Source of the DNA: Cyanobacteria bacterium P01_D01_bin.156
GTDB lineage: Bacteria; Cyanobacteriota; Cyanobacteriia; Phormidesmidales; Phormidesmidaceae
Length of the DNA: 64,000 nucleotides
NCBI GenBank assembly: GCA_039024555.1
Contig: JBCCQQ010000011.1
Location: forward strand, 45,269-109,268
Reading direction: 5' to 3'
The translations under genes were made by a program, and so were the position numbers. Position 1 is the stretch's first letter; each line of letters opens with the position of its first letter. Below the pieces are notes generated by a model. It worked only from the letters and a program-made list of their open reading frames with translations, did not search any database and was not told the origin of the DNA. Below are positions 19,670-38,581 of the stretch, in pieces.

Positions 19670-22657
19670 ATGACCGACGTCTTCATTTCCTACTCACGAA
19701 AAGACGAGACCTTTGTGCAGGTGCTGAATCAGGCTCTGATAGATAGCAAATACGATGCCTGGGTAGATTGGGAAAGTATTCCCCTCACTGCTGATTGGTG
19801 GGAAGAGATTAAAACCGGGATTGAAGGGGCGGATACGTTTATCTTTGTAATTAGTCCTGACTCGATTGCGTCTAAAGTCTGTGGTCAGGAGATTGACCAT
19901 GCGGTAGAAAATAATAAGCGATTGCTGCCGATTGTGTATCGGGAAGGCTTTGACCAGTCTCTAATGCGTCCAGCATTAAGTAAACACAACTGGCTGTATT
20001 TCAAAGAAGAGAATGACTTTGACCAAGCATTTACATCTCTGGTGGAAACGCTCAATACAGATTTGTCCCATGTGAAAACCCATACGCGATTACTAGTTAA
20101 AGCTCAGGAATGGGATAAAAAACACCGTCGAGATGATTTGCTGCTACGGGGAGATGAGTTTGTCATTTCTGAAAATTGGCTACTGGAAGCGTTAGAACAG
20201 CAAAAGGAGCCGCTGCCAACATTTCTACATAAGGACTACATTCAGGCTGGGCGAGAAGCTCAGGACCGCGCACTTAAGCAAGAAAAACGGCGGAATTTTC
20301 TCCTCAGGGGGCTCCTGGCCATCATGACTTTTACCTCGGTCGCCGCCTCAGGAGCCAGTATCTATGCCTATCAACTATGGCGCGGTGGACAAATTGAGCA
20401 AATTGAGTCACTGGCTAAGCAGTCTAATGCTGAGTTTTCAGCAGGGCAAACTACCGAGGCCCTAATTAGGGCCTTACAAGCAGCACATCAGTGGCAAAAG
20501 TATCCGGGGAGCGATCGCAACCTCGTTCATCAAAGCTTGCAGCAAGCCGTCAACGGTATTCGCGAAAGCAACAGCTTAGGTGACCATATCGCTGCAGTTA
20601 ATGACCTTGCAATCAGCCCAGATGGCGAAACCATTGCGGCTGGGACAATTGCAGGAAGCATCAAGCTTTGGAGCAAAGACGGGACATTACTTTATACCAT
20701 CTATGGCCATGCGGAACGCCTGACTAATGTGGCCTTTAGCCCCGATGGGCAAATGCTGGCCTCAGCAAGTGCAGATCAAACAGCTAAGCTGTGGAATCTT
20801 CAAGGGGAACTGCTCCATACCCTTTCAGGACATAATGCACGGGTCTCAGACATTGACTTCAGCCTAGACGGGAAAAAGATTGTTACCACGAGTGACGATA
20901 GCACGCTGAAGTTATGGACCCAAGACGGCAAACTGTTACGCACACTCAACAGTCATGAGGCACAGGTTTACCGGGTGGCCTTTAGTCCTGATGGCGAAAT
21001 GTTTGCCTCAGCTAGCGACGACAATACGATCAAACTTTGGAATCTGGAAGGAGATTTACTGCATACGTTAGTTGGACACACCAATGTTCCGGTGGAGCCA
21101 GTTTTTAGCCCAGATGGACAACTCTTAGCGTCGGGAGGGGACGATAAAACTGTACGACTTTGGAATCGTGATGGAGAATTGTTGAAGACCTTAACCGGCC
21201 ATGAAGACAGAGTCAGAGAAGTTGTTTTTAGTCCAGATGGGCGAACATTAGCCTCAGCAAGTGATGATAAAACGATTAAACTGTGGACCCGAGAAGGACA
21301 ACTTATCACCACTCTGATTGGACATTCGGATGACGTTCGACGGATACGCTTTAGCCCCGATGGCCAAACGTTTGTATCTGCTAGTGGTGATCAAACTATT
21401 AAACACTGGACTTTAGACGGCAGGCTTATCCAAACCCTGACAGGACACCAAAGCTGGGTCCGAGATCTTGCCTTTAATCCTAATGACCACACCCTTGTCT
21501 CTGCTAGTGGTGATCAAACAGTAAAACTTTGGCAGCTCGAAAGAGGCGTTTCAACTGCTCTACACCATGGAAATGTAGTTAGAAAGATTCTATACAGCCC
21601 CAATGGCCAATCTCTTGTGGCGGGGGATGGTCGTGGTCTCCTCAAGTTTTGGACACCGGACGGAGAACTGATTAAAACGGTAAAAGCCTATGGTCAAGAT
21701 AATGATGTAAATGATCTTGTCTTTAGCCCCGATGGCCAACGGTTGGCGATAATCGGTGAGTCAAGGGGGGATGACCAGACTGCCAAAATTTGGAGTGCTA
21801 AGGGAGAACTGCTGCATACCCTTGAGCATCCAGGTGGTTTAGACGGTTCAGGCTATGCTGTGGACTTTGGCCCCGATGGTAAAACCCTGGCTTCAGCGAA
21901 GGGCAATACGGTCAAACTTTGGAGTGCAAATGGAAATCTTCTCCATACGTTGTCTGGCCATTCAAATAAGGTTCCATTTATCTCCTTTAGCCCTGATGGG
22001 AAAACCTTAGCGTCTGCCAGCATAGATGGCACTGTTAAACTGTGGAATCTTGAAGGAGAACTGCTTGATACCCTTGGCAATGGAGAAGAGATTTATACGG
22101 CAGTGGCCTTCAGCCTCAATGGTCAGTATCTTGTCGCTGGCAGTGCAGATGGCACATTGCGGCTCTGGAATAACAACGGTGATTTGTTACATACGATGGA
22201 AGGCCACACCGGTGTAGCAAACCAAGTCCTCTTTAGTACTGACGGTCAGACCATTATCTCTGGCAGCGCTGATGGTACAGCTAAGTTTTGGAATCTAAAA
22301 GGTAAGCTACTGACTACCCTAAAAGGTCATGAAGGAGGAATTTGGACTATGGCCCTTAGCCCTGATGGAAAGACGTTAGCAACAGCTGGGAAAGGCCACA
22401 CAATTAAGCTATGGTCGATAAATGGTGATTTTTTGCAGACTTTGGTTGGCCACACAGACTCCGTACTTCATATAGAATTTAGCCCGGACGGTAAAACCCT
22501 GGCCTCCAGTAGTGTCGATGGGAATGCCATTGTGTGGGACTTAGAAGCAGTGAAATTTGATGCGCTGATACAGCGGGGCTGTGAGTGGTGGCGCGAGTAT
22601 ACTAAATATCAAGACATCTCACCCGATCAGCAACAAGCTATCTGTGATGAAGTTTAA
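19670..22657 (+). CDS. TIR-TM-WD40 repeat protein, copy 1
   Basis: TIR domain (DVFISYSR, W.DW..I, SKVCGQEIDHA), helical linker, one hydrophobic helix, 16 WD40 repeats counted by eye. Confidence 0.92.
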   Translation: MTDVFISYSRKDETFVQVLNQALIDSKYDAWVDWESIPLTADWWEEIKTGIEGADTFIFVISPDSIASKVCGQEIDHAVENNKRLLPIVYREGFDQSLMRPALSKHNWLYFKEENDFDQAFTSLVETLNTDLSHVKTHTRLLVKAQEWDKKHRRDDLLLRGDEFVISENWLLEALEQQKEPLPTFLHKDYIQAGREAQDRALKQEKRRNFLLRGLLAIMTFTSVAASGASIYAYQLWRGGQIEQIESLAKQSNAEFSAGQTTEALIRALQAAHQWQKYPGSDRNLVHQSLQQAVNGIRESNSLGDHIAAVNDLAISPDGETIAAGTIAGSIKLWSKDGTLLYTIYGHAERLTNVAFSPDGQMLASASADQTAKLWNLQGELLHTLSGHNARVSDIDFSLDGKKIVTTSDDSTLKLWTQDGKLLRTLNSHEAQVYRVAFSPDGEMFASASDDNTIKLWNLEGDLLHTLVGHTNVPVEPVFSPDGQLLASGGDDKTVRLWNRDGELLKTLTGHEDRVREVVFSPDGRTLASASDDKTIKLWTREGQLITTLIGHSDDVRRIRFSPDGQTFVSASGDQTIKHWTLDGRLIQTLTGHQSWVRDLAFNPNDHTLVSASGDQTVKLWQLERGVSTALHHGNVVRKILYSPNGQSLVAGDGRGLLKFWTPDGELIKTVKAYGQDNDVNDLVFSPDGQRLAIIGESRGDDQTAKIWSAKGELLHTLEHPGGLDGSGYAVDFGPDGKTLASAKGNTVKLWSANGNLLHTLSGHSNKVPFISFSPDGKTLASASIDGTVKLWNLEGELLDTLGNGEEIYTAVAFSLNGQYLVAGSADGTLRLWNNNGDLLHTMEGHTGVANQVLFSTDGQTIISGSADGTAKFWNLKGKLLTTLKGHEGGIWTMALSPDGKTLATAGKGHTIKLWSINGDFLQTLVGHTDSVLHIEFSPDGKTLASSSVDGNAIVWDLEAVKFDALIQRGCEWWREYTKYQDISPDQQQAICDEV

Positions 22658-22669
22658 GGCTAGAGGAGT

Positions 22670-22741
22670 TTTATCACCAGCCCGGAGTCTTTCGTTTCTA
22701 AAGTCTACAGACAGGAGATTAATTATGTGGTGGAACACAAC
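22670..22741 (+). pseudogene. Relic of a further TIR-WD40 copy
   Basis: Translates as FITSPESFVSKVYRQEINYVVEHN versus FVISPDSIASKVCGQEIDHAVENN in the intact copies; directly follows the array's RBS spacer AGGAGTTTTATCAC. Confidence 0.8.
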
Positions 22742-22745
22742 ATTC

Positions 22746-22886
22746 TCAGTGAATTAAAGGCTGCTGACAGAATGGGTACTTTTGCAATTTGTCGTCATCT
22801 GGGCTGCCATAGGGCCTGACACACAGGACAAACGACAGAGCTGTACCCAGGCAAAGCCACAGCCCTAACCTAAATAGAGCATTCAT
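22746..22886 (-). CDS. Putative 46-aa small membrane/secreted protein
   Basis: Manual translation MNALFRLGLWLCLGTALSFVLCVRPYGSPDDDKLQKYPFCQQPLIH; hydrophobic N-half; lies downstream of the riboswitch-led ORF. Confidence 0.35.
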   Translation of the reverse strand: MNALFRLGLWLCLGTALSFVLCVRPYGSPDDDKLQKYPFCQQPLIH

Positions 22887-22994
22887 CTCACTCGATTCGT
22901 TGAGGTTGACGGTAGGTTAGTTCAAACGCGGTAATTGAACTTTAACCGCACCCATGGCGGGGGAATACTTAACAGGCATTGAACCTGTAATCAC

Positions 22995-23078
22995 CTAACA
23001 CAGAATCGGACAGAATACAATGCAGTCAATTGTCAGCACTGCAAACAGCTTGATCATGATAAAAGTTTCAGGTGTCAT
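22995..23078 (-). CDS. Putative 27-aa hydrophobic peptide led by a glutamine riboswitch (possibly a nonsense-truncated ~53-aa ORF)
   Basis: MTPETFIMIKLFAVLTIDCIVFCPILC*, preceded by AGGAGG; the frame stays open for another 25 codons after the TAG, to 22917. Confidence 0.5.
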   Translation of the reverse strand: MTPETFIMIKLFAVLTIDCIVFCPILC

Positions 23079-23113
23079 GAGAATCGCCTCCTGGAAATAT
23101 GCATTGAAACAGA

Positions 23114-23189
23114 GGCGCGTTCCTTCGGGGAAAAGACCCTACTTCCGTCTCTTGTGAGTCAGATTTTGACTCTGTAAAAGATGAACGTT
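23114..23189 (-). ncRNA. Glutamine riboswitch (glnA RNA motif)
   Basis: Minus strand reads AACGTTCATCT-[hairpin GAGTCA/TGACTC]-AGACGGAAGTAGGG-tcttttc-CCCGAAGGAACGCGCC, matching the conserved blocks of the glnA motif. Confidence 0.9.
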
Positions 23190-23199
23190 ATTTATTTCT

Positions 23200-23213
23200 G
23201 TATCCTATGTTAC
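23200..23213. promoter_or_regulatory. NtcA binding site
   Basis: GTATCCTATGTTAC fits GTA-N8-TAC and lies about 10 bp upstream of the riboswitch, a repressor-like position. Confidence 0.7.
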
Positions 23214-23410
23214 TCCTTTGCCTTTAGGTGTCAATAGGGAAACTCTGTAATGTCTAAAATTCATAACAAGACGGGTCATATGTCCTCGAAAATCGCCTGG
23301 GATAGGCAACGTATGCCCGATAAAAAACAGCTTCTGTTTTCTTGAGTAGAGAAAAATGTCAGAATAGTGCGTATGTGAAAACTGTAGCATTCTACTGCCA
23401 TTCATCGGTC

Positions 23411-26380
23411 ATGACGGACGTATTTATCTCCTACTCCCGCAAAGACAAAGCCTTTGTGCAGGTACTCAATCAGGCCCTGGCCAATAGTAAATACGATGCC
23501 TGGGTGGATTGGGAGAATATTCCCCTGACGGCGGACTGGTGGGAGGAAATTAAAGCCGGGATTGAAGGTGCGGATACGTTTATTTTTGTTATCAGTCCCG
23601 ACTCCATAGCCTCTAAGGTGTGTGGTCAAGAGATTGACCATGCGGTGGAAAACAATAAGCGATTGTTGCCGATTGTGTACCGGGAAGGGTTTGATATGTC
23701 TCGGGTACGTCCGGCCTTGGGTAAACACAACTGGCTGTTCTTTAAAGAAGAGAATGACTTTGACCAAGCATTTACTTCGCTGGTGGATGCCCTCAATACG
23801 GATCTATTCCATGTGAAGACCCACACACGATTGCTGGTTAAAGCTCAGGAATGGGATAAAAAGCACCGTCGGAATGATCTGTTGCTGCGGGGGGATGAGT
23901 TCGTCATTTCTGAAAACTGGCTAGTGGAAGCCCTTGACCAACAAAAGGAGCCGCTGCCAGCCACACTCCATAAAGAGTATATCCAGGCGGGACGAGAAGC
24001 TCAAGAACGGGAGGTTAAGCAAGAGAAGCGACGGATTTTGATTCTCAGGTCGCTCCTGGCCATCATGAGTTTTGCCTTTTTAGGCGCTGCCGGTCTTGGA
24101 GCCCATGCGTATAACCTGTGGCGAAAGGGAGAAATTGCTCAAATCACTAACCTGGCAGAAAAGTCCAACGCAGAGTTTTTGGCAGGACGAAATACCAATG
24201 CGTTGATTACAGCACTGGAAGCAGGTCATAAGTGGCAGCAATATCCGGGTAGCGATCGCAACCTCGTTCATCAAGTATTGTCGCAGTCCGTTAGCGGCAT
24301 CCGCGAAATCAAAACATTAGAAGGCCATGATGGTGTTGTTCGTGAGATAGCCATTAGCCCTGATGGCCAGATAATTGCTTCTGGTTCACAAGACGGAAAA
24401 ATTAAACTTTGGAACCTGCAAGGTCAACTGTTGCATACAATTGCAGCTCATGAAGATGATGGTCTATGGCTTAGCTTTAGTCCTGATGGCGAAATTTTGA
24501 CGTCTGTCAGTGAAGATCACACAGCGAAACTTTGGAATCTTCAAGGGCAATTATTACATACGCTTTCAGGCCATCAGGATACAGTACACGATCTTATCTT
24601 TAGTCTAGATGGTCAAACAATCATAACCGCCAGTCATGATACTACACTCAAGCTGTGGAACCGAGAAGGAAAGTTGCTAAACACCCTTAACGATCATAAC
24701 GATATTGTTTGGCGTGTTGTTCTTAGTCCAGATGGCCAAACTTTAGTGTCCCATAGCGAAGATAAGACTCTTAAGCTATGGAATTTGCAAGGAGACTTGC
24801 TTCACACGTTAGACGCTCATACTGATGTTCCCTGGAGTGAGGCGTTTAGCCCAGATGGAGAACTGCTGGCATCGAGCGGGGCTGATAATACTGTTAGGCT
24901 TTGGAATCGTGATGGTGAATTACTGAAAACCTTGACTGGTCATGAAGATACCGTTTTTGAAGTGGTCTTTAGCCCTGATGGGCAGACAATAGCCTCAGCC
25001 AGTCGAGATACAACCATTAAACTGTGGACCCGAGAAGGACAGCTCATTACGACGCTCAATGGACATACCAGTGCTGTTAATTGGATCAGGTTTAGTTCTG
25101 ATGGTCAAACGTTGGCTTCTTCGAGTAATGACAACACGATTAAACAGTGGAGCCTGGATGGCACACTTCTACAAACATTAACAGGTCACCAGGCTTGGGT
25201 AGGTGATTTGCTATTTAGCAAAGATGGACAAACCCTGATATCTGCCAGTGGCGATCAAACAGTCAAGTTTTGGCAACTTGAAGGAAACGTTTCCAAGTCT
25301 CTTCGGGGGCATACAAGTTTCGTTCGCAAGGTTCGATACAGCCCTGATGGTCAAACTCTGGTGACTGGCAGCTCCGACGGCACCCTAAAATTCTGGACTC
25401 CCGATGGAGCGCTAATCCGCACTGTGAAGGCGCACAAAGATGAAGTCCAGGATGTTGCCTTTAGCCCAGACGGAGAAATCATCACGTCGATTAGTCGTGA
25501 GGGAATTACCGCTAAACTCTGGAATTCTCAAGGAGAGCTATTGCATGTTCTAGAAGGTCATGAAGGCAAAGGCTCTTGGACGATCTTTAGCCCAGATGGG
25601 CAGACCATCGCCTCAGCCAGCGGCAATGTCGTCAGACTCTGGAACTTAAACGGTGAACTTCTGCATACTCTAAAGGACCATACGGAAAAAATTAGATACA
25701 TTGCCTTTAGCCCGAATGGCAAAATCCTGGCATCTACGAGCGACGACGGCACGCTCAAGCTATGGAACCTGCAAGGCGAGCTGCTACGAACCCTGGGTAA
25801 TGGAGAAAAACGCTATTTTGAAGTCACGTTTAGCCCAGACGGCAACTACCTTGTTGCGGCTAACGGTGATCATACCCTACAACTCTGGAACGCTAGCGGA
25901 GACTTACTCCATACCTTAGAAGGCCATACGGATGAGGTCATTCGAGTTCTCTTTAGCCGCGATGGTAAAACGATTATCTCAGGAAGTGATGATGGTACTG
26001 TCAGATTTTGGAATTTAGAAGGGAAAAACTTAAAGACTTTCCAGGGCCACGAAGGTGCAATTTGGACTATGGCGATGAGTCCAGACGGTCAAACATTTGC
26101 GACTGGTGGTAACGATGGAACTATCGCACTCTGGTCAATTGAAGGAAAATTAATACAAATCCTGGAGGGACATAAAGACTGGATGATACATCTAGAGTTT
26201 AGCCCTGATGGCAAAACCCTCGCTTCCAGTAGCGCCGACGAAACCGCTATGTTGTGGGACCTAGAAGCGCTAGAGTTTGATGCGCTGATGCAACGAGGCT
26301 GTGAGTGGTGGCGCGAGTACACCGAGTATCAAGACATCCCACCTGACCAACAAGCTATCTGTGGTGAAGTTGAAGGCTAG
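23411..26380 (+). CDS. TIR-TM-WD40 repeat protein, copy 2
   Basis: Same architecture as copy 1; start moved to the ATG at 23411 (MTDVFISYSR) by homology with the paralogs. Confidence 0.92.
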   Translation: MTDVFISYSRKDKAFVQVLNQALANSKYDAWVDWENIPLTADWWEEIKAGIEGADTFIFVISPDSIASKVCGQEIDHAVENNKRLLPIVYREGFDMSRVRPALGKHNWLFFKEENDFDQAFTSLVDALNTDLFHVKTHTRLLVKAQEWDKKHRRNDLLLRGDEFVISENWLVEALDQQKEPLPATLHKEYIQAGREAQEREVKQEKRRILILRSLLAIMSFAFLGAAGLGAHAYNLWRKGEIAQITNLAEKSNAEFLAGRNTNALITALEAGHKWQQYPGSDRNLVHQVLSQSVSGIREIKTLEGHDGVVREIAISPDGQIIASGSQDGKIKLWNLQGQLLHTIAAHEDDGLWLSFSPDGEILTSVSEDHTAKLWNLQGQLLHTLSGHQDTVHDLIFSLDGQTIITASHDTTLKLWNREGKLLNTLNDHNDIVWRVVLSPDGQTLVSHSEDKTLKLWNLQGDLLHTLDAHTDVPWSEAFSPDGELLASSGADNTVRLWNRDGELLKTLTGHEDTVFEVVFSPDGQTIASASRDTTIKLWTREGQLITTLNGHTSAVNWIRFSSDGQTLASSSNDNTIKQWSLDGTLLQTLTGHQAWVGDLLFSKDGQTLISASGDQTVKFWQLEGNVSKSLRGHTSFVRKVRYSPDGQTLVTGSSDGTLKFWTPDGALIRTVKAHKDEVQDVAFSPDGEIITSISREGITAKLWNSQGELLHVLEGHEGKGSWTIFSPDGQTIASASGNVVRLWNLNGELLHTLKDHTEKIRYIAFSPNGKILASTSDDGTLKLWNLQGELLRTLGNGEKRYFEVTFSPDGNYLVAANGDHTLQLWNASGDLLHTLEGHTDEVIRVLFSRDGKTIISGSDDGTVRFWNLEGKNLKTFQGHEGAIWTMAMSPDGQTFATGGNDGTIALWSIEGKLIQILEGHKDWMIHLEFSPDGKTLASSSADETAMLWDLEALEFDALMQRGCEWWREYTEYQDIPPDQQAICGEVEG

Positions 26381-26395
26381 AGGAGTTTTATCACG

Positions 26396-29377
26396 ATGAC
26401 CGATGTATTTATTTCATATTCTCGCAAAGATAAAGCCTTTGTTCAAGTGCTCAACCAGGCCCTGGCGGATAGCAAATACGATGCCTGGGTGGATTGGGAA
26501 AATATTCCTCTGACAGCGGACTGGTGGGAGGAAATCAAAGCAGGGATTGAAGGGGCGGATACGTTTATCTTTGTCATCAGTCCCGACTCTATTGCGTCTA
26601 AGGTGTGTGGTCAAGAGATTGACCATGCGGTAGAAAACAATAAGCGACTGTTGCCGATTGTGTACCGGGACGGGTTTGATATGGACCTGGTACGTCCAGC
26701 ATTAGGTAAACATAACTGGCTGTTCTTTAAAGAAGAGAATGATTTTGATCCAGCATTCGCTTCTCTCGTGGAAACGCTGAATACAGATCTGTCCCATGTG
26801 AAGACCCACACACGATTGCTAGTTAAAGCTCAGGAATGGGATAAGAAACACCGTCGAGATGATTTGTTGCTGCGGGGTGATGAATTTGTTATTTCTGAAA
26901 ACTGGCTAGTGGAAGCCCTTGACCAACAAAAGGAACCGCTGCCAGCCACACTACATAAAGAGTATATCCAGGCCGGACGGGAAGCCCAGGAGCGAGAGGT
27001 TAAGCAAGAAAAGCGGCGGATTTTGATTCTCAGGACAATGCTTGCCATCATGAGCTTTACCGCAGTTACTGCAACGGGAGCTGGTATTTACGCCTACCAA
27101 CTGTGGCGTAATGGCGAAGTTGCCCAAATTGAGTCCTTGGCTAAGCAGTCAAACGCGGAGTTTTTGGCGGGGCAAAATACTGATGCGTTGATTACGGCGC
27201 TGAAGGCAGGACACAGGTGGGAAAAGTATCCAGAGAGCGATCGCCAACTCGTGCCTCAGGTGTTACTTCAAGCTGTAGACGGCATTCGGGTAATTAAAAC
27301 CTTAGGCGGACAAAATAACGTAATCCTCAGATTAGCCTTCAGCCCTGACGGGGAGATCATGGCTGAAGGCAGTGCCAGTGGAATCATTAACTTATGGAAT
27401 AAACAGGGAAAGTTACTCAATACTCTCACAGAGCATGAAGGCTCTATTCGAAGGCTTATTTTTAGTCCCGATGGGCAAGTTTTAGCATCTGCAAGTGGAG
27501 ATAAAACTGCTAAATTGTGGAACTTAAATGGAGAATTACTGCACACGCTTTCAGGCCACACGGACCAAGTACGGGATCTAAGATTCAGTCCTGATGGTCA
27601 AACGATTGTGACCTCAAGCCACGACAGCACCCTCAAGCTCTGGACCCGAGAGGGAAAATTGTTGAAAACACTCGATAATCATGAAGACCGAGCATGGAAT
27701 TTAGCATTGAGCCCCGATGGCACGATGATAGCTTCTCACAGCGACGACAGTACTGTAAAAATCTGGAACTTTGAAGGGGAGTTGCTTCATTCGCTACCTC
27801 ATACCCGAGTCCCTTGGCACACCACATTTAGTCCTGATAGTGAGCTTATTGCCTCAGGTGGCTATGATCAAACAGTTTCGCTCTGGAATCGCAATGGAGA
27901 ACTGCTTCATACCTTGACTGGACATGAAGGTATCGTTCGGAGAATAGCCTTCAGCCCTGACGGTCAACTATTGGCCTCAGCGAGTGCTGACAACACTATT
28001 AAATTGTGGACGAGACAAGGGCAACTTCTTAAAACGCTTACAGGACACACTCGTACTGTGAGGGGAATAAAGTTTGCGAGTGATGGCAAAATGTTTGCGT
28101 CAACTAGTGCTGACAATACCATTAAGCTATGGGCACGAGATGGCACGCTTTTACAAACTTTGACTGGACACCAAGCATGGGTAGATGCCCTTGAATTCAG
28201 CCCTAATGGGCAGATTCTTGCATCAGGCAGCGGCGACCAGACGGTAAAACTGTGGCAGATGGAAGGAACTGTTTCAACTTCTCTGCAAGGACACACCAGT
28301 TTTGTCAGAACCATTCAACACAGCCCTGATGGACAAACTTTAGTGACTGGAGGTTCTGATGGCACGTTCAAATTTTGGACAACCGAGGGAGAATTAATCC
28401 GCACTGTTGATGGTCACAAGAAAGAAAATGAAGAAGATGAAATTGAAAATGCTACCTTTAGTCCCGATGGACAAGCCATTGCGACTATCAGCCGTAATGG
28501 GGCTAACGCCAAACTCTGGACTTCAGACGGTGAACTACTGCATGTTCTGGAAGGCCATGAAGGCCAAGGTGGTCGGATAACGTTTAGTCCAGACAGTCAA
28601 ACTATTGCCTCTTCCAGTGGAAATGTTATTAGGCTATGGAACTTAGATGGTGATCTGTTACATACTCTAAACGGCCATACAGAATTCATTAGATTTATTG
28701 TCTTTAGCCCCGATGGTCAAACGCTAGCCTCTACGAGTAACGATGGCACCCTTAAGCTTTGGAACTTAAATGGTGAACACCTAAAAACCCTCGGTAATCG
28801 AGAAGAGCGATACTTGGAGATGTCGTTTAGTCCTGATGGGCAATATCTTGTGGCCGCAAATGGTGACCAAACATTACAACTGTGGAATGCTAACGGTGAC
28901 CTACTTCGTACTCTGGAAGGCCATGAAGATGAAGTGATTAGAGTTCTCTTTAGTCGTGACGGAGAAACTATCATTTCTGGTGGCGATGACGGTACTCTAC
29001 GATTCTGGAATTTAGACGGAGAACTGTTAAAGAGTATCGAAGGCCATGAGGGTCAGATTTGGCACATGGAATTGAGTCCCGACGGTCAAACTATTGCTAC
29101 AGGAAGTAGCGATCACACCATCAAGCTGTGGTCAATCGACGGAGAGCTGATACAAACTCTCGTAGGTCATAAAGGCTGGATCCTGCGTTTAGAATTTAGT
29201 CCTGATGGCAAAACTCTTGCGTCTAGCAGTGCCGATGAAACGGCAATTCTGTGGGACTTGGAATCGCTGAAATTTGATGCCCTAATGCAGCAGGGCTGTG
29301 AGTGGTGGCGCGAGTACACCAAGTACCAAGACACTCCACCCGACCAGCAAGCTATCTGTGGTGAAGTTGAAGGCTAG
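26396..29377 (+). CDS. TIR-TM-WD40 repeat protein, copy 3
   Basis: Same architecture; 15-bp spacer with AGGAG RBS after copy 2. Confidence 0.92.
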   Translation: MTDVFISYSRKDKAFVQVLNQALADSKYDAWVDWENIPLTADWWEEIKAGIEGADTFIFVISPDSIASKVCGQEIDHAVENNKRLLPIVYRDGFDMDLVRPALGKHNWLFFKEENDFDPAFASLVETLNTDLSHVKTHTRLLVKAQEWDKKHRRDDLLLRGDEFVISENWLVEALDQQKEPLPATLHKEYIQAGREAQEREVKQEKRRILILRTMLAIMSFTAVTATGAGIYAYQLWRNGEVAQIESLAKQSNAEFLAGQNTDALITALKAGHRWEKYPESDRQLVPQVLLQAVDGIRVIKTLGGQNNVILRLAFSPDGEIMAEGSASGIINLWNKQGKLLNTLTEHEGSIRRLIFSPDGQVLASASGDKTAKLWNLNGELLHTLSGHTDQVRDLRFSPDGQTIVTSSHDSTLKLWTREGKLLKTLDNHEDRAWNLALSPDGTMIASHSDDSTVKIWNFEGELLHSLPHTRVPWHTTFSPDSELIASGGYDQTVSLWNRNGELLHTLTGHEGIVRRIAFSPDGQLLASASADNTIKLWTRQGQLLKTLTGHTRTVRGIKFASDGKMFASTSADNTIKLWARDGTLLQTLTGHQAWVDALEFSPNGQILASGSGDQTVKLWQMEGTVSTSLQGHTSFVRTIQHSPDGQTLVTGGSDGTFKFWTTEGELIRTVDGHKKENEEDEIENATFSPDGQAIATISRNGANAKLWTSDGELLHVLEGHEGQGGRITFSPDSQTIASSSGNVIRLWNLDGDLLHTLNGHTEFIRFIVFSPDGQTLASTSNDGTLKLWNLNGEHLKTLGNREERYLEMSFSPDGQYLVAANGDQTLQLWNANGDLLRTLEGHEDEVIRVLFSRDGETIISGGDDGTLRFWNLDGELLKSIEGHEGQIWHMELSPDGQTIATGSSDHTIKLWSIDGELIQTLVGHKGWILRLEFSPDGKTLASSSADETAILWDLESLKFDALMQQGCEWWREYTKYQDTPPDQQAICGEVEG

Positions 29378-29392
29378 AGGAGTTTTATCACG

Positions 29393-32371
29393 ATGACAGA
29401 CGTATTTATTTCCTACTCCCGCAAAGACAAAGCCTTTGTTCAGGTGCTCAACCAGGCACTAGCCGATAGCAAATACGATGCCTGGGTGGATTGGGAGAAT
29501 ATTCCCCTCACTGCTGACTGGTGGGAAGAGATTAAAGCGGGGATCGAAGGGGCGGATACGTTTATCTTTGTCATCAGCCCGGACTCGATTGCGTCTAAGG
29601 TATGTGGTCAGGAGATTGACCATGCAGTAGAAAACAATAAGCGGTTGTTGCCGATTGTGTACCGAGAAGGGTTTGATATGTCCTTGGTGCGCCCGGCTTT
29701 GGGTAAACACAACTGGCTGTTCTTCAAAGAAGAGAATGACTTTGACCCAGCATTTGCATCGCTGGTGGATGCCCTCAATACGGATCTATCCCATGTGAAG
29801 ACCCACACACGCTTACTGGTTAAAGCTCAAGAATGGGATAAAAAGCACCGACGGGATGATTTGTTGCTACGGGGTGATGAGTTTATCATTTCCGAAAACT
29901 GGCTAGTGGAAGCCCTTGATCAACACAAGGAACCACTGCCAGCCACACTACACAAAGAGTATATCCAGGCGGGACGGGAGGCTCAGGAACGGGAGGTTAA
30001 ACAAGAGAAGCGACGGATTTTGATCCTTAGGTCGCTAGTCGCCATTCTGAGTCTTGCCTTTGTAGGGGCTGCTGGTCTTGGTGCTCATGCTTATAATTTA
30101 TGGCGTAAAGGAGAAGTTGAACAGATTGAGTCTCTGGCAAAACAGTCTAATGCTGAATTTTTAGCAGGACGAAATACCGATGCGTTGATTACGGCTCTAG
30201 AAGCAGGGCATCAATGGCAAAAATATCCAGGTAGCGATCGCATCTTCGTTCATCAAGTCTTGGCACAAGCCGTCAACGGCATTCGCGAAATCAAAACCTT
30301 AGGTGACAACTATGATGTTATTTGGGACATTGCTGTTAGCCTCGACGGTAGCATCATTGCCTCTGGCGGCCACGTCGGAGAAATGAAACTCTGGAGCCGG
30401 GAAGGGAAGTTGCTCCATACCGTCTCGGCCCATGAAAAGGGGATTCGTCAATTGGCTTTTAGCCCCGATGGCGAGATATTAGCGTCGGCGAGTGATGACC
30501 AGACGGCTAAGCTTTGGAACCTTCAGGGTGAGCCCCTAAAGACGCTCTCAGGTCATGAGGATAATGTTGAAGGTTTGGGATTCAGTCCCGATGGTCAAAC
30601 CCTGGTGACATCTAGCAAGGATGCCACGCTTAAGCTCTGGAATCGAAACGGTGAGCTGTTGCAGACCTTGAACGATCATAAAGGCCCCGCTTGGGATCTG
30701 GTCTTCAGCTCCGATGGTCAGATATTTGCATCCCATAGCGATGACGACACCGTGAAGCTTTGGAATTGGGAAGGAGAAGTCCTCCGAACCCTCTATGAAC
30801 CTAACGCTGATCCCTGGAGCAAAGCCTTTAGCCCAGATGGAGAACTGATCGCGACTGGTGGAGCCGATAAAACCATTAGACTATGGAATCTTGATGGCGA
30901 GCTATTACACACCCTGACAGGCCATGAAGATACTGTACGCCAGGTCGTTTTCAGTCCAGATGGACAGTTGCTCGCCTCGGCGAGCTACGACAACACAATT
31001 AAACTCTGGAACCGAGAAGGAGAGATCATTAAAACCTTGGCAGGGCATACTCAAAATGTCAACTGGATGCAGTTTAGTCAGGATGGCCAAACCTTCGTCA
31101 CCTCTAGTAGCGACGGCACGATCAAGCAGTGGAGGTTAGATGGAGCTTTACTGCAAACATTGACGGGACATACAAGTTGGGTCGGAGATGTTGTTTGGAG
31201 TCCAGATGGTCAAACGGTAATATCTGGCAGCGGCGACCGAACCGTTAAGCTTTGGCAATTGACAGGCAATACCTCAACCACGCTGAAAGGCCACAATTCA
31301 TGGGTCAGCGCCGCTCAATATACTCCTGACGGTCAGATGCTGATCACAGGAGAAGGGTATGGCCCACTGAAATTTTGGACTGCCGACGGCGAGCTGATTC
31401 GCACGGTTGATGGACATAGTTATGATGATGGACTCGGTGCCTTTGCCGTGAGTCCAGACGGTCAATTCATTGCTTCCATCAGCAATAATGGGCCAGTTGC
31501 CATCCTCTGGAATGCCCAAGGGGAAATACTACACACGCTCGAAGTCGAAGACGGATCTAAACCACGGGTAAGGTTTAGCCCTGATGGAGAAATCCTGCTT
31601 ACCGCCCGGGGTGGTGTTATCCACCTCTGGAATTTGGACGGAGAGCTCTTGCACACGCTGACTAGCGATACAGAGTCCATTCAAGACATCACCTTCAGTC
31701 CTGACAGTCAAATCCTGGTATCGACTAACAGTAATGGCCCCCTCAACATTTGGAGTGTTGAGGGTGAATTGCTAAATAGTTTAGGCGATCGGGAAGAACC
31801 TTATTATGCAGTAACCTTTAGCCCCGATGGACAGTATCTGGTGGCGGGCAGCAAGGACAACACAGTGCAACTTTGGACTGCCAACGGCGAGTTGCTACAC
31901 ATGCTCGAAGGCCACACCGATGCAATAAACGATGTTCTCTTTAGTCACGACGGTCAAACGATCATCTCTGCCAGCGAAGATGGCAACATCAAATTTTGGA
32001 GCCTAGAAGGTGAGCTAGTGAATTCAGCCAAGGCCGAGGAAGCAGAAATTTGGGAAGGAATATGGGATATTGCTTTGAGCCCTGACGGAGAGACGTTAGC
32101 GACCGCTGGAGACTATATCGTTAAGCTCTGGTCGATGAATGGCGAGCTTTTACAGACCTTAGTCGGTCACATTGGCTCGGTAAGGGATCTAGAATTCAGC
32201 CCCGACGGCAAAACCCTCGTCTCCAGTAGCGCTGATGAGACCGCTATTGTGTGGAATTTAGAAGCGCTGGAGTTTGATGCCCTGATGCAGCGAGGCTGTG
32301 AGTGGTTCAAAAACTACGAGGCCAACAAAACAGACGAAGACAAACATGAGTCTCTCTCCCTTTGCAATTAG
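29393..32371 (+). CDS. TIR-TM-WD40 repeat protein, copy 4
   Basis: Same architecture; identical 15-bp spacer; distinct C-terminal tail. Confidence 0.92.
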   Translation: MTDVFISYSRKDKAFVQVLNQALADSKYDAWVDWENIPLTADWWEEIKAGIEGADTFIFVISPDSIASKVCGQEIDHAVENNKRLLPIVYREGFDMSLVRPALGKHNWLFFKEENDFDPAFASLVDALNTDLSHVKTHTRLLVKAQEWDKKHRRDDLLLRGDEFIISENWLVEALDQHKEPLPATLHKEYIQAGREAQEREVKQEKRRILILRSLVAILSLAFVGAAGLGAHAYNLWRKGEVEQIESLAKQSNAEFLAGRNTDALITALEAGHQWQKYPGSDRIFVHQVLAQAVNGIREIKTLGDNYDVIWDIAVSLDGSIIASGGHVGEMKLWSREGKLLHTVSAHEKGIRQLAFSPDGEILASASDDQTAKLWNLQGEPLKTLSGHEDNVEGLGFSPDGQTLVTSSKDATLKLWNRNGELLQTLNDHKGPAWDLVFSSDGQIFASHSDDDTVKLWNWEGEVLRTLYEPNADPWSKAFSPDGELIATGGADKTIRLWNLDGELLHTLTGHEDTVRQVVFSPDGQLLASASYDNTIKLWNREGEIIKTLAGHTQNVNWMQFSQDGQTFVTSSSDGTIKQWRLDGALLQTLTGHTSWVGDVVWSPDGQTVISGSGDRTVKLWQLTGNTSTTLKGHNSWVSAAQYTPDGQMLITGEGYGPLKFWTADGELIRTVDGHSYDDGLGAFAVSPDGQFIASISNNGPVAILWNAQGEILHTLEVEDGSKPRVRFSPDGEILLTARGGVIHLWNLDGELLHTLTSDTESIQDITFSPDSQILVSTNSNGPLNIWSVEGELLNSLGDREEPYYAVTFSPDGQYLVAGSKDNTVQLWTANGELLHMLEGHTDAINDVLFSHDGQTIISASEDGNIKFWSLEGELVNSAKAEEAEIWEGIWDIALSPDGETLATAGDYIVKLWSMNGELLQTLVGHIGSVRDLEFSPDGKTLVSSSADETAIVWNLEALEFDALMQRGCEWFKNYEANKTDEDKHESLSLCN

Positions 32372-32392: not shown

Positions 32393-33682
32393 CTATGAAC
32401 CCAAAACCATCTCATTAACCGTTTGTCCCATCTGCAGAGGCGACGCTTTTCTCTTAATTGAAATACAGTCAGCTAAATAATTAGCATCACGCGCAATGCC
32501 AGAAAAACGACCCGAACCCCAGGTATACAACCAAGGTAACCCCAAGAAATAAAGCCCCGACACAGGAGTCACACCCCGCTCATGACCGGGATAACCCTTG
32601 CCATCAAAAACAGGAACATCCACCCAGCCAAAATTAGAGTGGTAGCCCGTGGACCAAATAACCGTCGAAATATTTGCCGCCTCTAGATCGAGAGAAAGTG
32701 TGCTGGTTTCCGGTTGCCACACTGGACAATAGTCGGCCTCCACAGGTGCATCCAGCTGATGTTTTTCAATGTAGTCATCAATGGTGCTTTTAATGCTTTC
32801 AGACACGGCATCGGCCTGATCTAAATTTTGTCGAAGATTATCTTGAAATGTTAAATCGCTTCCTTGAATACTATCGAGTTTGCCATAGAGCTTCATCCCT
32901 TCTAGGGCAAAATGTCGCAAGTCAATCTCTCGTCCACCATCGCGACCGGTAACATAGTGATTTGTTTTAGTCCGAACAGATTCTTTTTGGGGATGATCAT
33001 CAATGGACATATCGTAATAGCCCATCTGATCCAGCCAGTCCACCACATCCTTCCCGCGATACACACGGGGAGACCGGGGCGCACCCCCAACACATAAATG
33101 TACCTGTTTGCCTGCCAGGTGCAAGTCTTCAGCAATTTGGCACCCGGATTGCCCCGTACCTACCACTAGCACAGCCCCATCGGCCAAAGCCTCAGGATTC
33201 TTATATTCCGAGGAATGGATCTGGGTAACCGATTGGGGTAACCGTTCCGCCATTCTAGGAATTTTGGGCGTATGGTAACCACCGGTGGCAATCACCACCT
33301 GGTCAGCAACATAGTGACCAATGGACGTTTCAATATCAAATACGTTTTCAGGTTTACTGATTTTCTCAACCGTTACCCCTTCTTTTACTAACGGCTGAAA
33401 CGATTGAGCATAGTCTTCTATATATTGCACAATCTCATCCCGCTGCATAAAGCCGTTGGGGTCACCACCCGGATAGTGATACCCCGGCAACGTGCACTGC
33501 CAGTTAGGGGTTACCAGACAAAACGTATCCCAACGCTTAGAACGCCACGAATGGGCAATTTTGTGCTTTTCAAAAATTATGTTGTCAATGCCTCGCTGCT
33601 TGAGGCAGTAGCTAATGGCTAAGCCCGCCTGACCGCCACCGATAATGGCAACTGGAAAATGGGAACTGGTTAATGCTCGCAT
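32393..33682 (-). CDS. nitH: MSMEG_0569-family flavin-dependent oxidoreductase (nit1C cluster)
   Basis: GGGQAG, RWDTFCLVTPNWQC.LPG, GTGQSG.QIAEDL, TNHYVTGRDGGREIDLR, GLPWLYTWGSGRF; start placed at the ATG at 33682. Confidence 0.88.
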   Translation of the reverse strand: MRALTSSHFPVAIIGGGQAGLAISYCLKQRGIDNIIFEKHKIAHSWRSKRWDTFCLVTPNWQCTLPGYHYPGGDPNGFMQRDEIVQYIEDYAQSFQPLVKEGVTVEKISKPENVFDIETSIGHYVADQVVIATGGYHTPKIPRMAERLPQSVTQIHSSEYKNPEALADGAVLVVGTGQSGCQIAEDLHLAGKQVHLCVGGAPRSPRVYRGKDVVDWLDQMGYYDMSIDDHPQKESVRTKTNHYVTGRDGGREIDLRHFALEGMKLYGKLDSIQGSDLTFQDNLRQNLDQADAVSESIKSTIDDYIEKHQLDAPVEADYCPVWQPETSTLSLDLEAANISTVIWSTGYHSNFGWVDVPVFDGKGYPGHERGVTPVSGLYFLGLPWLYTWGSGRFSGIARDANYLADCISIKRKASPLQMGQTVNEMVLGS

Positions 33683-33799
33683 GGCTTTAGTAGCTAGAGA
33701 ATGAGTAACCTGCCCCACTATCCACACTCGTAAGAGTTCAAAGACAGCAGCATTTGAAGGCAGGGCAATTTGCTTCGATGGCGAAATTGCTATAGTTCA

Positions 33800-33841
33800 A
33801 CCATAGGAATCTCAACGGTGAGTACCTGTATCGAGAGTTAC
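33800..33841 (-). promoter_or_regulatory. NtcA-activated promoter of the oxidoreductase gene
   Basis: Minus strand GTAACTCTCGATAC-N22-TATGGT fits GTA-N8-TAC-N22-TAN3T. Confidence 0.75.
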
Positions 33842-34020
33842 CAAACACACAAGTCTCGGACTATGGTCAGGGCAGATCTGCAGGCGCTAGCTTAAATAAC
33901 AGCTCATCATAGGTTAATCGCGATTTACCTGCACTTTTTGACAGGTAACTGTCTTTTTAGAATATCTCTCATCAGTATTAAATCTGTTTCCCTGTCTCAT
34001 TTGTCAGGCTTTATCGCTTT

Positions 34021-34062
34021 GTAACAACAGATACGAGAAAGAGAACTTAGACCTTTTAAGCT
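34021..34062 (+). promoter_or_regulatory. NtcA-activated promoter of the nit1C genes
   Basis: GTAACAACAGATAC-N22-TAAGCT, with the -10 box 31 bp before the ATG at 34094. Confidence 0.82.
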
Positions 34063-34093
34063 GCTGACAAATCCATATGTGGGAGTAACGTAA

Positions 34094-34576
34094 ATGCCTG
34101 AAGTAACCGCTCCAGCTCATCAGGCCGGTGACTTTTTCGTTGACTACGAAGAAAAAGTGTTTCCAGATGTTCAAGCAGAACCTGGAGAGAAAGCGCTGGT
34201 GGCTTTTCACACGGTCGCTTTTGAGGGGTCCATTGGTTTAGTCAATCTGTTACAGGCGACTCGCTTAATCCGTAAAGGGTTTGAAACCTCTGTATTGCTC
34301 TACGGTCCCGGTGTGACACTAGGTGTACAGCGTGGTTTCCCAAAACTAGGTGACGAGGCATTTCCAGGACACTTGGCCATGAATAACCAGTTGGTCAAGG
34401 TGATGGAAGAAGGCGGTAAGGTTTATGCTTGCCGGTTTGCGCTCCAGGCCCTTTATGGTCATGGTGAACCTTCTTTAATTCCCGGCATCACGCCGATTAA
34501 TCCTTTGGATGTATTGGATATTATTCTGTTACACCGTAAGGAAGGCGCATTTGTTCTGGATACTTGGACAATGTAG
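34094..34576 (+). CDS. nitB: MSMEG_0572/Sll0783-family nitrogen-starvation protein
   Basis: [55 protein letters not shown]. Confidence 0.92.
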
Positions 34577-34800
34577 GAAATCGAAGAAAAATTGTTTAGG
34601 CAATTTTCTTTTGAAATCTTGCATTTGGCAAATCCTGAACAAGCAGCAGTGCACAAGATTCTATTCTGCTCTTTCTGAAGGGCTTTAGGAGAATTACTGG
34701 GGCGGGAGCTTCTACCTAGGAGTATTGGCCCCCTCTCTCTCAGTCTCTCTTGTGAAGGCTACTCATCTAAAGATTATTGACGTTGAGGATGATAGCAACG

Positions 34801-34895
34801 GTCCCCCTTAAATAAGGGGACCAACGGAGGGGTTCTTGATCGTTAACGCTGACATCGAGCCCCCTCCCTGACGGTTCCCCTTAGTAAGGGGAACT
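34801..34895. repeat. Palindromic dispersed repeat / MITE-like element, copy A
   Basis: Two CCCCTT-N3/5-AAGGGG hairpins flanking GGAGGGG...CCCCTCC arms; related to 37341-37445 and 43984-44121. Confidence 0.75.
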
Positions 34896-35138
34896 ATTAG
34901 CAGGCTATTTTGAGAGCCATGAATCTCAAGAGTTTTAGCTATTGAACCATGCATACTCGTTACCCTCATAACGAGGAAATGAATATCGTCAAATCTCATA
35001 ACGATATTTTTTCAGAACCATTCATAGCTGTTCTCTCAAACGTCAACGTAGGCCAATCGGCACCATTGATTTTGACCTCTTGAATGTTCTTTATATCTCA
35101 AATAGAATGATCGTTCTATTTCATACGCTTTAGCCACT

Positions 35139-36155: not shown

Positions 36156-36209
36156 AACATTCGGCCTCCAACACATTTCAATTTTAGATATATCTCTTTT
36201 TATCCGACC

Positions 36210-37295: not shown

Positions 37296-37340
37296 AAGAT
37301 TTTATAAACCGATGGCCCATCAGGGACTCGGTGATTTTTT

Positions 37341-37445
37341 GGGTTCTCCTTAGTAAGGGGAATCGTCAAGGAGGGGGAATCGATGATTAGCACAGACGAC
37401 AAAGACCCCTCCGCCTACGGCACCTCCCCTTACCAAGGGGAGGAC
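37341..37445. repeat. Palindromic dispersed repeat / MITE-like element, copy B
   Basis: The left part is the reverse complement of 34860-34895 with mismatches; 37402-37431 is identical to 44078-44107. Confidence 0.75.
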
Positions 37446-37491
37446 GTTGCAGAACATAATCCTTGCTTTTTGTTTTTCGCTTTCTAAAACT

Positions 37492-38004: not shown

Positions 38005-38039
38005 GAAAGTCATTACTAATAAAAAATTTTCCAAATTTG

Positions 38040-38495: not shown

Positions 38496-38581
38496 TTCTG
38501 ATAAATAGGCAAAATCATCGTTCGGATTATGATTTCTTTTAACTCTTGAGAACGTCAGAAAATATAGCTTTATAACAACTA

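Follow-up and report, generated by a model that had tools for sequence, protein, structure and literature searches.

A tandem array of predicted single-pass TIR-WD40 receptors in a cyanobacterium, apparently part of a family that exchanges its outer domains

Four adjacent genes in a 64,000-nucleotide window of a cyanobacterial genome (the window is the whole stretch of DNA analysed here) join a TIR domain to a long run of WD40 repeats, which raises the question of whether they encode membrane receptors that couple different ligands to a shared output. A sequence-only reading had described four paralogs of about 990 amino acids with a nearly identical N-terminal end. We found four colinear plus-strand open reading frames of 989 to 995 amino acids, each consisting of TIR domain, helical module, one hydrophobic helix and 16 WD40 repeats. 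Gene 1 (19670-22657, plus strand, 995 aa) comprises the TIR domain (19670-20053), helical module (20054-20287), hydrophobic helix (20294-20371), juxtamembrane helices (20381-20557), 16 WD40 repeats (20558-22543) and a tail with a cysteine pair (22544-22645). The same order, all on the plus strand, is found in gene 2 (23411-26380, 989 aa counted from the ATG; TIR 23411-23794, helical module 23795-24028, helix 24035-24112, 16 WD40 repeats 24299-26263, then the Cys-pair tail), gene 3 (26396-29377, 993 aa; TIR 26396-26779, helical module 26780-27013, helix 27020-27097, 16 WD40 repeats 27284-29260, then the Cys-pair tail) and gene 4 (29393-32371, 992 aa; TIR 29393-29776, helical module 29777-30010, helix 30017-30094, 16 WD40 repeats 30281-32260, then a divergent Cys-pair tail). 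The mechanical open reading frame of gene 2 starts earlier, at a TTG at 23342. Genes 2 and 3 are separated by a 15-nt spacer containing a ribosome-binding-site-like AGGAG (26381-26395, plus strand), and the spacer between genes 3 and 4 (29378-29392, plus strand, 15 nt) is identical to it; a remnant of this spacer is also present 3' of gene 1.

Pairwise identity between the paralogs is 90-97% in the TIR domain and 87-97% in the helical module, as the described constant end implied, compared to 45-87% in the hydrophobic helix and 54-73% in the propeller halves. A profile built from gene 2 recovered 16 repeats in each protein, in agreement with the earlier count, while Pfam WD40 alone gave 12-16 stretches per protein; the hexamers listed earlier for repeats 6, 7 and 16 match the sequence exactly. 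NTPase motifs had been reported absent, and Pfam likewise returned no NTPase in residues 1-297 of the four proteins, nor did we find a Walker-A-like motif in either homolog set (165 and 133 proteins). The sole loose Walker-A-like match in the four proteins falls within one of the WD40 repeats of gene 1.

We judged membrane topology by hydropathy and by comparison with homologs. Each protein has one hydrophobic peak, located after the EKRR motif as first described, with best Kyte-Doolittle 19-mers of 1.53, 2.14, 1.74 and 2.34 in genes 1 to 4, respectively; the next-best 19-mers score 0.94-1.12. Hydrophobicity is marginal for gene 1 (the weakest of the four) and gene 3. Across relatives the signal is bimodal: 155 of 165 proteins, a set in which some proteins are counted twice, have a 19-mer of at least 1.5 directly after the last helical module, and none scores 1.0-1.5. 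Lys and Arg are in excess on the N-terminal side of the helix in 130 of 139 relatives from this first set. Representatives at 50% identity gave a similar picture, with a helix in 128 of 133 and the Lys/Arg excess in 117 of 128. Furthermore, known ectodomains occupy the slot after the helix. In another paralog of this genome CHASE2 (E 5.5e-50) starts right after the same helix, a further paralog has a weak Cache match there, and relatives close the CHASE2 or Cache domain with further helices; CHASE2 is carried by 5 of 120 database matches. The relative P0161 has the order TM-Cache-TM-TM-WD40, again placing WD40 outside. Because the helix is family-wide, the positive-inside bias is consistent and CHASE2 and Cache share the slot, we infer a single-pass protein with a cytoplasmic TIR, N-terminus in and C-terminus out, for which comparative support is strong; the topology proposed in the sequence-only reading is thus favoured. 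The membrane-receptor reading of the four proteins is well supported by their homologs. We also considered the tail cysteine pair as a sign of an oxidising compartment and rejected it, as three of four helix-less members retain the pair and it does not discriminate.

We found that Pfam TIR_2 (PF13676) covers residues 4-124 of all four proteins (E 1e-27 to 6e-26; 92-97 bits against a curated cut-off of 28). The structure model of the TIR-helical part has a pLDDT of 94, and structure searches with residues 1-138 assigned these to the TIR fold, at Z 18.6 with 123 residues aligned at an rmsd of 2.1. The Glu of SKVCGQEI, previously noted as kept by all four, is Glu74; in alignments it falls on the helix-C Glu of both Cat1 and AbTir, and a Glu is retained at this catalytic position in 418 of 430 TIR copies from both homolog sets, redundant tandem copies included. 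AbTir is reported to be inactivated by E208A (PMC10641520). The Trp of the AbTir WxxxE motif, four positions before the Glu, is Val in the four genes, and across the 430 copies this position is mostly Tyr (348), followed by Val (39) and Phe (21). Since the SPARTA TIR also lacks this Trp, its absence does not exclude activity. Among solved structures, NADases are the ones that match best in sequence. Our data support a TIR of the enzyme type, predicted to cleave NAD. Relatives carry one to seven TIRs in tandem, including proteins with three, five or seven TIR-helical units. An uncontrolled homodimer prediction for the TIR module scored 0.00 and speaks neither for nor against joint assembly.

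By HHalign, the helical module shares homology with the post-NTPase segment of AAA_35-TM-WD40 proteins (88.9%, E 2.5e-6), scoring 34 where none of 40 shuffles exceeded 17.8, the AAA_35 set for this alignment being a selection of four of nine matches in which the NTPase match runs to the query end and the motif region follows. An earlier comparison that included non-homologous rows was weak (E 0.005). AAA_35 proteins of this genome share with the array the whole chassis of helical module, TM, WD40 and Cys tail. Searching the ESM Atlas with residues 125-300 returned unnamed clusters as top matches (0.90), and a cluster in which 13% of members contain nSTAND1 at 0.80 is a lead only. Among 37 representatives scanned, the ectodomains were WD40-type (13), FGE-sulfatase-like (4), Cache (2), TPR (1) and LRR (1), with partly overlapping classes and 18 of 37 having nothing beyond TIR. 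The four genes are apparently part of a large family with exchangeable outer domains, one that is undescribed in the literature searched.

Two alternatives bear on this architecture. The helix might be re-entrant or not transmembrane at all, leaving TIR and propeller in the cytoplasm as an NTPase-less STAND-WD40 derivative that senses phage proteins inside the cell. The homology of the helical module to the AAA_35 segment, the marginal hydrophobicity in genes 1 and 3, the 4 of 143 WD40 members that lack the helix and the existence of bacterial STAND proteins with WD40 sensors (PMC13581612) would fit such a protein. The bimodal, family-wide hydrophobicity with its positive-inside bias and the CHASE2 and Cache domains directly after the same helix, closed by further helices, argue the other way, as does the structure model, in which the helix is the only long low-confidence stretch and is flanked by two folded parts; we consider a cytoplasmic protein improbable. 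We give a still slimmer chance to the TIR lacking enzymatic activity and acting, like that of animal Toll-like receptors, as a scaffold that recruits a stand-alone TIR adaptor or a TIR-STAND protein. Scaffold TIRs (MyD88, TLR and the IL-1R family) rank level with SARM1 among the structural neighbours, the WxxxE Trp is missing, and TIR matches occur in 29 open reading frames of this genome, one of them a stand-alone TIR that lies 11 kb downstream and adjoins a STAND-TPR gene. Against it stand the Glu retained even in redundant tandem copies and the NADases as best sequence matches.

How the sensors vary was asked of the propeller. The sequence-only reading had likened it to the diversifying binding face of HET-E-type fungal receptors, and the positional part of this claim stood. 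The four paralogs have 2.83 different residues per position on the top face compared to 1.88 across the whole propeller (permutation P 5e-5), confirming that the variable sites cluster, and 1.71 in the bottom loops. The most variable repeat positions are 7, 9, 10 and 25; those reported for HET-E are 7, 9, 25 and 27 (PMC1805685), which are all among the most variable positions of the array repeats. The evolutionary part did not stand. dN/dS, proposed earlier as a per-site check, was approximately 0.5 (0.48-0.50) at top-face positions, significantly below 1, versus 0.13 in the bottom loops. No site class with dN/dS above 1 was found, and mixture models that assigned approximately 0.1% of sites a value above 1 gained nothing in likelihood, in an analysis of 18 sequences (own codon model, one tree, two frequency schemes) whose power is reduced by old paralogs and recombination. 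Positive selection on the propeller was not found, either by pairwise counts on six pairs or by codon models. Repeat homogenisation in the style of HET-E or WRAP was ruled out: blades within a gene are 41% identical (maximum 66%) while the same blade across paralogs is 61% identical, and for 59 of 64 blades the best match is the same blade of another paralog; the blades are old, and their order is kept rather than shuffled. The closest solved propeller, Npun_R6612 (PDB 2YMU), is 47% identical, and the structure model did not confirm the double 8-blade closure that had been proposed earlier.

Our data indicate that propeller lineages predate the species and move as whole modules. The gene 2 propeller (codons 275-875) differs from that of a gene in genome G012 at 14 of 601 codons, while the TIR ends of the same two genes differ at 124 of 274 codons; dS is 0.05 in the propeller versus 1.3 in the N-terminal part, and background genes of the two genomes are 75-82% identical. 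The G012 contig bearing this twin holds only these genes. Between the twins, 5 of 11 propeller differences fall on the top face, which makes up 9.8% of sites (P 0.0025), and a second close pair has no top-face excess (2 of 10 differences, P 0.26). One propeller type was found behind three TIRs in genomes G004 and G014. The family is patchy, as 18 of the 251 genomes searched in the phylum have it, and relatives form arrays of two to six genes with variable copy number. Recent gene conversion as the origin of the constant TIR end is unsupported, since the four genes differ by a TIR dS of 0.63-1.13 and share no identical run longer than 44 nt. The comparisons of gene sequences indicate instead that the constant end is a product of strong purifying selection and module exchange, with older homogenisation as a further possibility and the N-terminal tree poorly supported, and that sensor diversity arises by exchange of whole modules. 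As judged from these sequences, the repertoire was built by tandem duplication and by recombination of old propellers and other ectodomains onto a TIR-helical-TM chassis.

A feature missed in the sequence-only reading is a glutamine riboswitch unit on the opposite strand, within the 753 bp that separate genes 1 and 2. The aptamer (RF01739; 23114-23189, minus strand) is followed downstream by two small hydrophobic open reading frames of 27 and 46 aa (22746-23078, minus strand), of which the 27-aa frame is 53 aa long in genomes G007 and G012, where the cassette likewise lies between such genes. The cassette is probably a passenger. Promoter and terminator scans gave counts not above shuffles. 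The flanks of the array are metabolic genes, and neighbourhoods of the family revealed no recurring defence partner: PADLOC (2023 version), run on 107 neighbouring proteins from a prepared set that had 136 more, matched 10 of the 107, mostly through generic domains. PADLOC also gave no match for the N-terminal 296 aa of the array proteins, no recurring ThsA-type effector near these genes, and no conserved effector gene near the array or its relatives. A defence role of the array is inferred only.

We hypothesized that the four proteins are NTPase-free single-pass receptors with a predicted NAD-cleaving TIR inside and WD40 propellers outside, which would couple different, likely foreign, surface ligands to a shared NAD-consuming output, a mechanism to which we give about even odds. 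With one helix setting the strongly supported N-in/C-out orientation, the top face of the propeller would bind a macromolecular ligand that differs between paralogs, as the position-specific variation suggests. Ligand binding would cluster the receptors so that the TIRs assemble and cleave NAD+, by analogy with Cat1, SPARTA TIR-APAZ and AbTir and given the kept Glu; relatives with several tandem TIR-helical units suggest that several TIRs act together. The near-identical TIR modules might let different paralogs feed one assembly, and the output would probably be NAD+ depletion with arrest or death of that filament cell.

The wider biological role is where readings diverge most. More tentatively, filamentous bacteria may have independently evolved Toll-like surface receptors in which a TIR NADase chassis with interchangeable ectodomains, tandem repertoires and cassettes traded across species kills or arrests a cell upon detecting a phage, predator or competitor outside, before entry. 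The ectodomains listed for this layout are WD40, WD40-TPR, FGE-lectin-like, Cache and CHASE2. The receptors could instead serve general signalling with an active TIR, reporting on environment, cell contact, or kin and host surfaces in biofilms through an NAD-derived messenger or shifts in the NAD pool, which we regard as rather unlikely. The Cache and CHASE2 ectodomains on the same chassis, which point to small-molecule sensing in some members, would suit this role, as would purifying selection even on the top face, propellers older than species, the lack of a defence-island context and a glutamine-riboswitch cassette that travels within the arrays of three genomes. Weighing against it, the characterised bacterial TIR enzymes closest in sequence (Cat1 and SPARTA) are immune effectors, the chassis carries FGE-sulfatase-like, TPR and LRR domains described as typical of conflict systems (PMC8195603, PMC10907252), the distribution is patchy with recent cassette exchange, and a conserved downstream messenger reader was not seen with PADLOC.

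The surface-receptor reading places the family among several known systems. Cyanobacterial WRAP/STAND-WD40 proteins, which have been proposed to act in the innate immunity of prokaryotes (bioRxiv 10.1101/2022.03.13.484165), include the related propeller of Npun_R6612, but the array lacks an NTPase, fuses the TIR directly rather than having it on a neighbouring STAND gene, and has blades that are not recently amplified. Unlike HET-E/NWD proteins, the array has no NACHT, positive selection or concerted repeat evolution and is predicted to span the membrane; more generally, it lacks the central P-loop NTPase of STAND/NLR receptors (NACHT, nSTAND1, AAA_35; HET-E, Avs). In TIR sequence, fold and helix-C Glu the array resembles Cat1, SPARTA TIR-APAZ, AbTir and Thoeris ThsB, which, in contrast, work in the cytoplasm and respond to nucleotides, nucleic acid or phage proteins as triggers; the main text of a Thoeris survey has no mention of WD40 or propeller (10.64898/2025.12.03.692087). 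Cyanobacterial metacaspase-TM-CHASE2 and EACC2-type proteins are described with a conflict effector inside and a CHASE2 or variable domain outside (PMC3501461, PMC8195603), a pairing that the array would share. The metacaspase-TM-CHASE2 effector is a caspase-like protease, whereas here the effector part is a single TIR or a series of them, accompanied by a dedicated helical module.

Animal Toll-like and IL-1 receptors cross the membrane once, carry a repeat-type recognition domain opposite a cytoplasmic TIR and form paralog families with differing ectodomains. The array proteins similarly appear to place a single helix between TIR and recognition domain. In contrast to the animal proteins, their TIR is N-terminal, N-in and without a signal peptide, their WD40 domain is C-terminal rather than an N-terminal LRR or Ig domain, their TIR retains the NADase Glu, and relatives carry tandem TIRs. 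The resemblance to Toll-like receptors is one of convergent layout rather than of demonstrated descent of the whole receptor. In the literature and structures compared, activation of bacterial TIR immune proteins takes place within the cell; if a variable recognition domain lies on the other side of the membrane from an enzyme-type TIR, bacteria would possess immune receptors at their surface that resemble Toll-like receptors. The four natural paralogs, together with the nearly identical propeller that another genome carries behind a different TIR end, are ready-made swap controls. Should the role prove to be general signalling, the family would nonetheless represent a new class of one-component receptor, one whose output is NAD-based. 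Confirmation of the sensing role would make the family a bacterial equivalent of Toll-like receptors, and the family would bear on how multicellular bacteria separate self from non-self.

We found four tandem open reading frames on the + strand, at 19670-22657, 23411-26380, 26396-29377 and 29393-32371 (genes 1-4; 989-995 aa), where the sequence-only reading had placed them; alignment with the paralogs sets the start of gene 2 at the ATG at 23411. Each protein carries Pfam TIR_2 at residues 4-124, then a helical module to approximately residue 206, a hydrophobic stretch, three helices, 16 WD40 repeats and a two-Cys tail. That reading had also described one hydrophobic helix behind a basic run, 16 repeats with variable hexamers, and a constant N-terminal end joined to a variable sensor. 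The helix and the repeats are present in all four proteins, the quoted hexamers are exact, and the paralogs are 87-97% identical in the TIR and helical module but 54-73% in the propeller halves. The hydrophobic stretch (residues ~209-234; KD 19-mer) scores 1.53, 2.14, 1.74 and 2.34 in genes 1 to 4. An AlphaFold model of gene 2 (pLDDT 79.6, pTM 0.58, 19 sequences in the alignment) is low-confidence at residues 203-231 and the final three residues and confident elsewhere; in the PDB it matches best 2YMU, a WRAP propeller from Nostoc. One 15-nt spacer containing AGGAG recurs unchanged between genes 2-3 and 3-4, and a remnant follows gene 1, which points to tandem duplication and, for genes 2-4, probably a single operon. 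Contigs from sequencing run X1, which end at the TIR repeats, cover all propellers with zero differences; they fit the assembly yet are not independent of it, X1 being possibly the source sample.

The array is real and belongs to a large receptor-like family. In the host genome (G000; 6.6 Mb, 47% GC, cyanobacterial judging by its relatives), 14 ORFs contain the helical module, one of them ending at a contig edge. Every one has a TIR: 1, 3 or 5 TIR-helical units lead to a hydrophobic helix and then to WD40 repeats or another domain. At G000:C86:7859-12080 a three-TIR member is broken within the propeller into two adjacent ORFs (827 and 579 aa). Unit number in relatives (example loci G000:C57:34765-40110, C7:14137-18615, C3:170759-174838 and C6:35401-39585) is mostly odd (1, 3, 5, 7; three units in 114 of 165 surveyed proteins), apparently a repeated pair plus a last membrane-proximal unit. 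Several members have TPRs downstream of the propeller, and the representatives P0146, P0215 and P0242 carry a nucleoside-deoxyribosyltransferase-like domain (PF15891) N-terminal to the TIRs.

An N-terminal query matched 21/21 genomes of the genus and 29/41 overall, and among 251 genomes drawn from across the phylum, 18 gave a match to a TIR-helical profile (0/107 in the largest family, 2/8 in one genus). The nearest database protein with a named source, at 86% over residues 1-296, comes from Leptothoe spongobia; named matches include Moorena, Symploca, Coleofasciculus, Microcystis, Parabeggiatoa and Anaerolineae. The profile search returned 6,669 representatives at E <=1e-30, among which there may be other TIRs. 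Tandem arrays recur in relatives, with six genes in G015:C85, five in G007:C55, three in G007:C172, four TIR-bearing genes in G012:C78, and three in each of the fetched regions L104, L114 and L121. TIR-start fragments 84-87% identical to the array N-terminus (ORFs of 72-93 aa; L029 ~2000-2250 of G017:C79, and G021:C32 ~2338427) are probably decayed copies. In G005:C14 (L018:652-4285), IS66 and another DDE transposase adjoin that genome's single 16-WD40 member.

Our data indicate that sensor modules are exchanged. The nearest propeller of genes 1, 2 and 4 lies in each case in another genome; the grouping of gene 3 with gene 2 is weak. Between gene 2 and G012_b, its near-identical counterpart in genome G012, codon differences number 14/601 at 275-875, 124/274 upstream and 35/114 downstream; dS is 0.05 in the propeller and 1.3 in the N-terminal part, and neighboring metabolic genes are 75-82% identical from one of the two genomes to the other. 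Since the G012 contig carries only these genes, mis-binning is possible, in which case the exchange would be between strains. One contig of run X2 resembles gene 2 over a stretch of 2,735 bases, with 153 differences, and then runs into the riboswitch cassette described below; run X3, from a separate study, has gene-2 propeller pieces with zero differences beside a divergent 3' piece, and G004 and G014 carry the same helical-TM-16xWD40 part behind three TIRs. Between paralogs the TIR end has a dN of 0.02-0.06 and a dS of 0.63-1.13, values indicating that it is kept constant by purifying selection.

We asked whether the propellers diversify in the manner of HET-E, as had been suggested. Repeat positions 7, 9, 25 and 27 were set beforehand from Paoletti 2007 (PMC1805685). 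The most variable positions across 13 sequences are 7, 9, 10 and 25, and the four paralogs have 2.83 residues per site at the test positions vs 1.88 overall (P 5e-5). In the closest pairs, these positions hold 5 of 11 differences between gene 2 and G012_b (P 0.0025) and 2 of 10 between G004 and G014 (P 0.26). In codon models of 18 sequences (L121 and L122 excluded as too distant), run with our own code on one tree with numerous saturated pairs, dN/dS was 0.48-0.50 at the test positions, 0.61-0.64 at positions 7 and 9 alone, and 0.13 for the bottom loops; each value lies significantly under 1, and the models gained nothing from extra classes above 1. Blades are colinear, 59 of 64 matching best the same blade in another paralog. 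The suggestion thus stands in that variation concentrates on the top face, which varies specifically, as expected of a binding face; the HET-E mechanism is absent, given dN/dS below 1 and colinear blades. According to Hu 2017 (PMC5587647), such hotspots are variable across prokaryotic WD40 proteins as a whole, so the pattern is unremarkable by itself.

Metabolic and signaling genes flank the array. A cluster of flavin monooxygenase, nitrilase, radical SAM, GNAT and AIR-synthase-like genes (32393-39553) is kept in 4/5 relatives searched; no TIR gene adjoining the flavin-monooxygenase gene was found in stretches from G005, G012 and G015. In relatives, family members lie next to homologs of genes from the 44-53 kb part of the window, which makes the region a recurring site. 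On the - strand at 40439-43852, a gene for a stand-alone 219-aa TIR protein sits immediately upstream of one for an 893-aa STAND-like NTPase-TPR protein; the arrangement resembles two-gene TIR + STAND loci, and the pair also occurs in G007 and G016. The gap between genes 1 and 2 contains, on the - strand (22746-23234), a promoter-like site and a glutamine riboswitch (RF01739, 51 bits), together with two small ORFs for hydrophobic, unannotated products; the first is 27 aa long in this window but 53 aa in the relatives. In G007:C55 (with 91% identity) and in G012:C78 this cassette is likewise flanked by TIR-WD40 genes. Near 56142 of G000:C14 there is a paralogous riboswitch, accompanied by a small ORF that resembles these.

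The reading we favor, to which we give about an even chance, is that these are surface receptors in which ligand-driven clustering would activate a predicted TIR NADase, most likely for conflict or non-self sensing. It shares a membrane-receptor anatomy, which we consider highly probable, with two alternatives, general signaling and a scaffold TIR; a cytoplasmic sensor would dispense with it. We surveyed 165 proteins that combine TIR with the helical module (120 database matches, host ORFs and ORFs from 20 fetched regions, some counted twice); 155 have a 19-mer of at least 1.5 directly behind the last helical module, and none scores 1.0-1.5. Lys/Arg is in excess on the N side in 130/139, and a second set of 144 further representatives gave a helix in 128 of 133 of sufficient length, with the bias in 117/128. 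The strongest argument for a propeller outside is that other domains substitute for WD40 behind the same helix: CHASE2, an extracellular receptor domain according to PMC3501461, followed by more hydrophobic helices in G000:C7, and a weak Cache match in G000:C14. A scan at 1e-8 of 37 representatives, out of 71 in which the WD40 profile matched less than three times, gave (overlapping) 13 divergent propellers, four FGE-sulfatase-like domains, two Cache, one TPR and one LRR, and no domain in 18. Helix parity in P0161 (TM-Cache-TM-TM-WD40) also puts WD40 outside. P0235, the LRR member, is a bacterial membrane protein carrying TIR and LRR together; it has three TIRs, approximately eight hydrophobic segments, which leave its topology ambiguous, and then an FGE-sulfatase-like domain and LRRs. 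Against membrane topology, hydrophobicity is marginal in genes 1 and 3, and the tail Cys pair is retained in three of four helix-less WD40 members (the other six helix-less proteins are non-WD40 or apparently truncated). One array member, at L017:9608-12286 (G012:C78), lacks both the helix and one of the two tail Cys residues and could be cytoplasmic. For the family, we regard a cytoplasmic sensor as improbable.

That the TIR is a scaffold seems to us more improbable still. The TIR-helical unit was modeled at pLDDT 94, and structure searches over residues 1-138 returned TIR folds, with enzyme and scaffold types tied. The best sequence matches among solved structures are Cat1, SPARTA TIR-APAZ and AbTir-type proteins, with whose helix-C Glu Glu74 of genes 1-4 aligns; AbTir E208A is inactive (PMC10641520). 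Glu is retained at the catalytic position in 418/430 TIR copies, tandem copies included. The copies have Tyr, Val or Phe in place of the WxxxE Trp, which favors cyclic products, so our guess is plain ADP-ribose. General signaling instead of defense is the likeliest of the three alternatives; 10 of 107 neighbors at 16 loci matched PADLOC, with no recurring partner.

In four host AAA_35 proteins, the stretch from NTPase to TM shares homology with the helical module (selected set; HHalign 88.9%, E 2.5e-6), so the TIR proteins resemble an AAA_35-TM-WD40 chassis with TIR where the NTPase would be. A full-text literature search found no description of TIR-TM-WD40 or TIR-TM-CHASE2, and neither is described in the matched passages of PMC10907252, PMC8195603, PMC7159879, PMC13581612 and bioRxiv 2025.12.03.692087, 2020.01.06.895854 and 2026.04.30.722052; supplementary material may list them, as may Dunin-Horkawicz 2014, a treatment of TIR/STAND/WRAP networks in cyanobacteria (per bioRxiv 2022.03.13.484165). 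The family members are not STAND proteins, their evolution is not HET-E-like, and as whole receptors they do not appear to share descent with Toll-like receptors; the family likely functions in the manner of a Toll-type receptor whose TIR is an enzyme.
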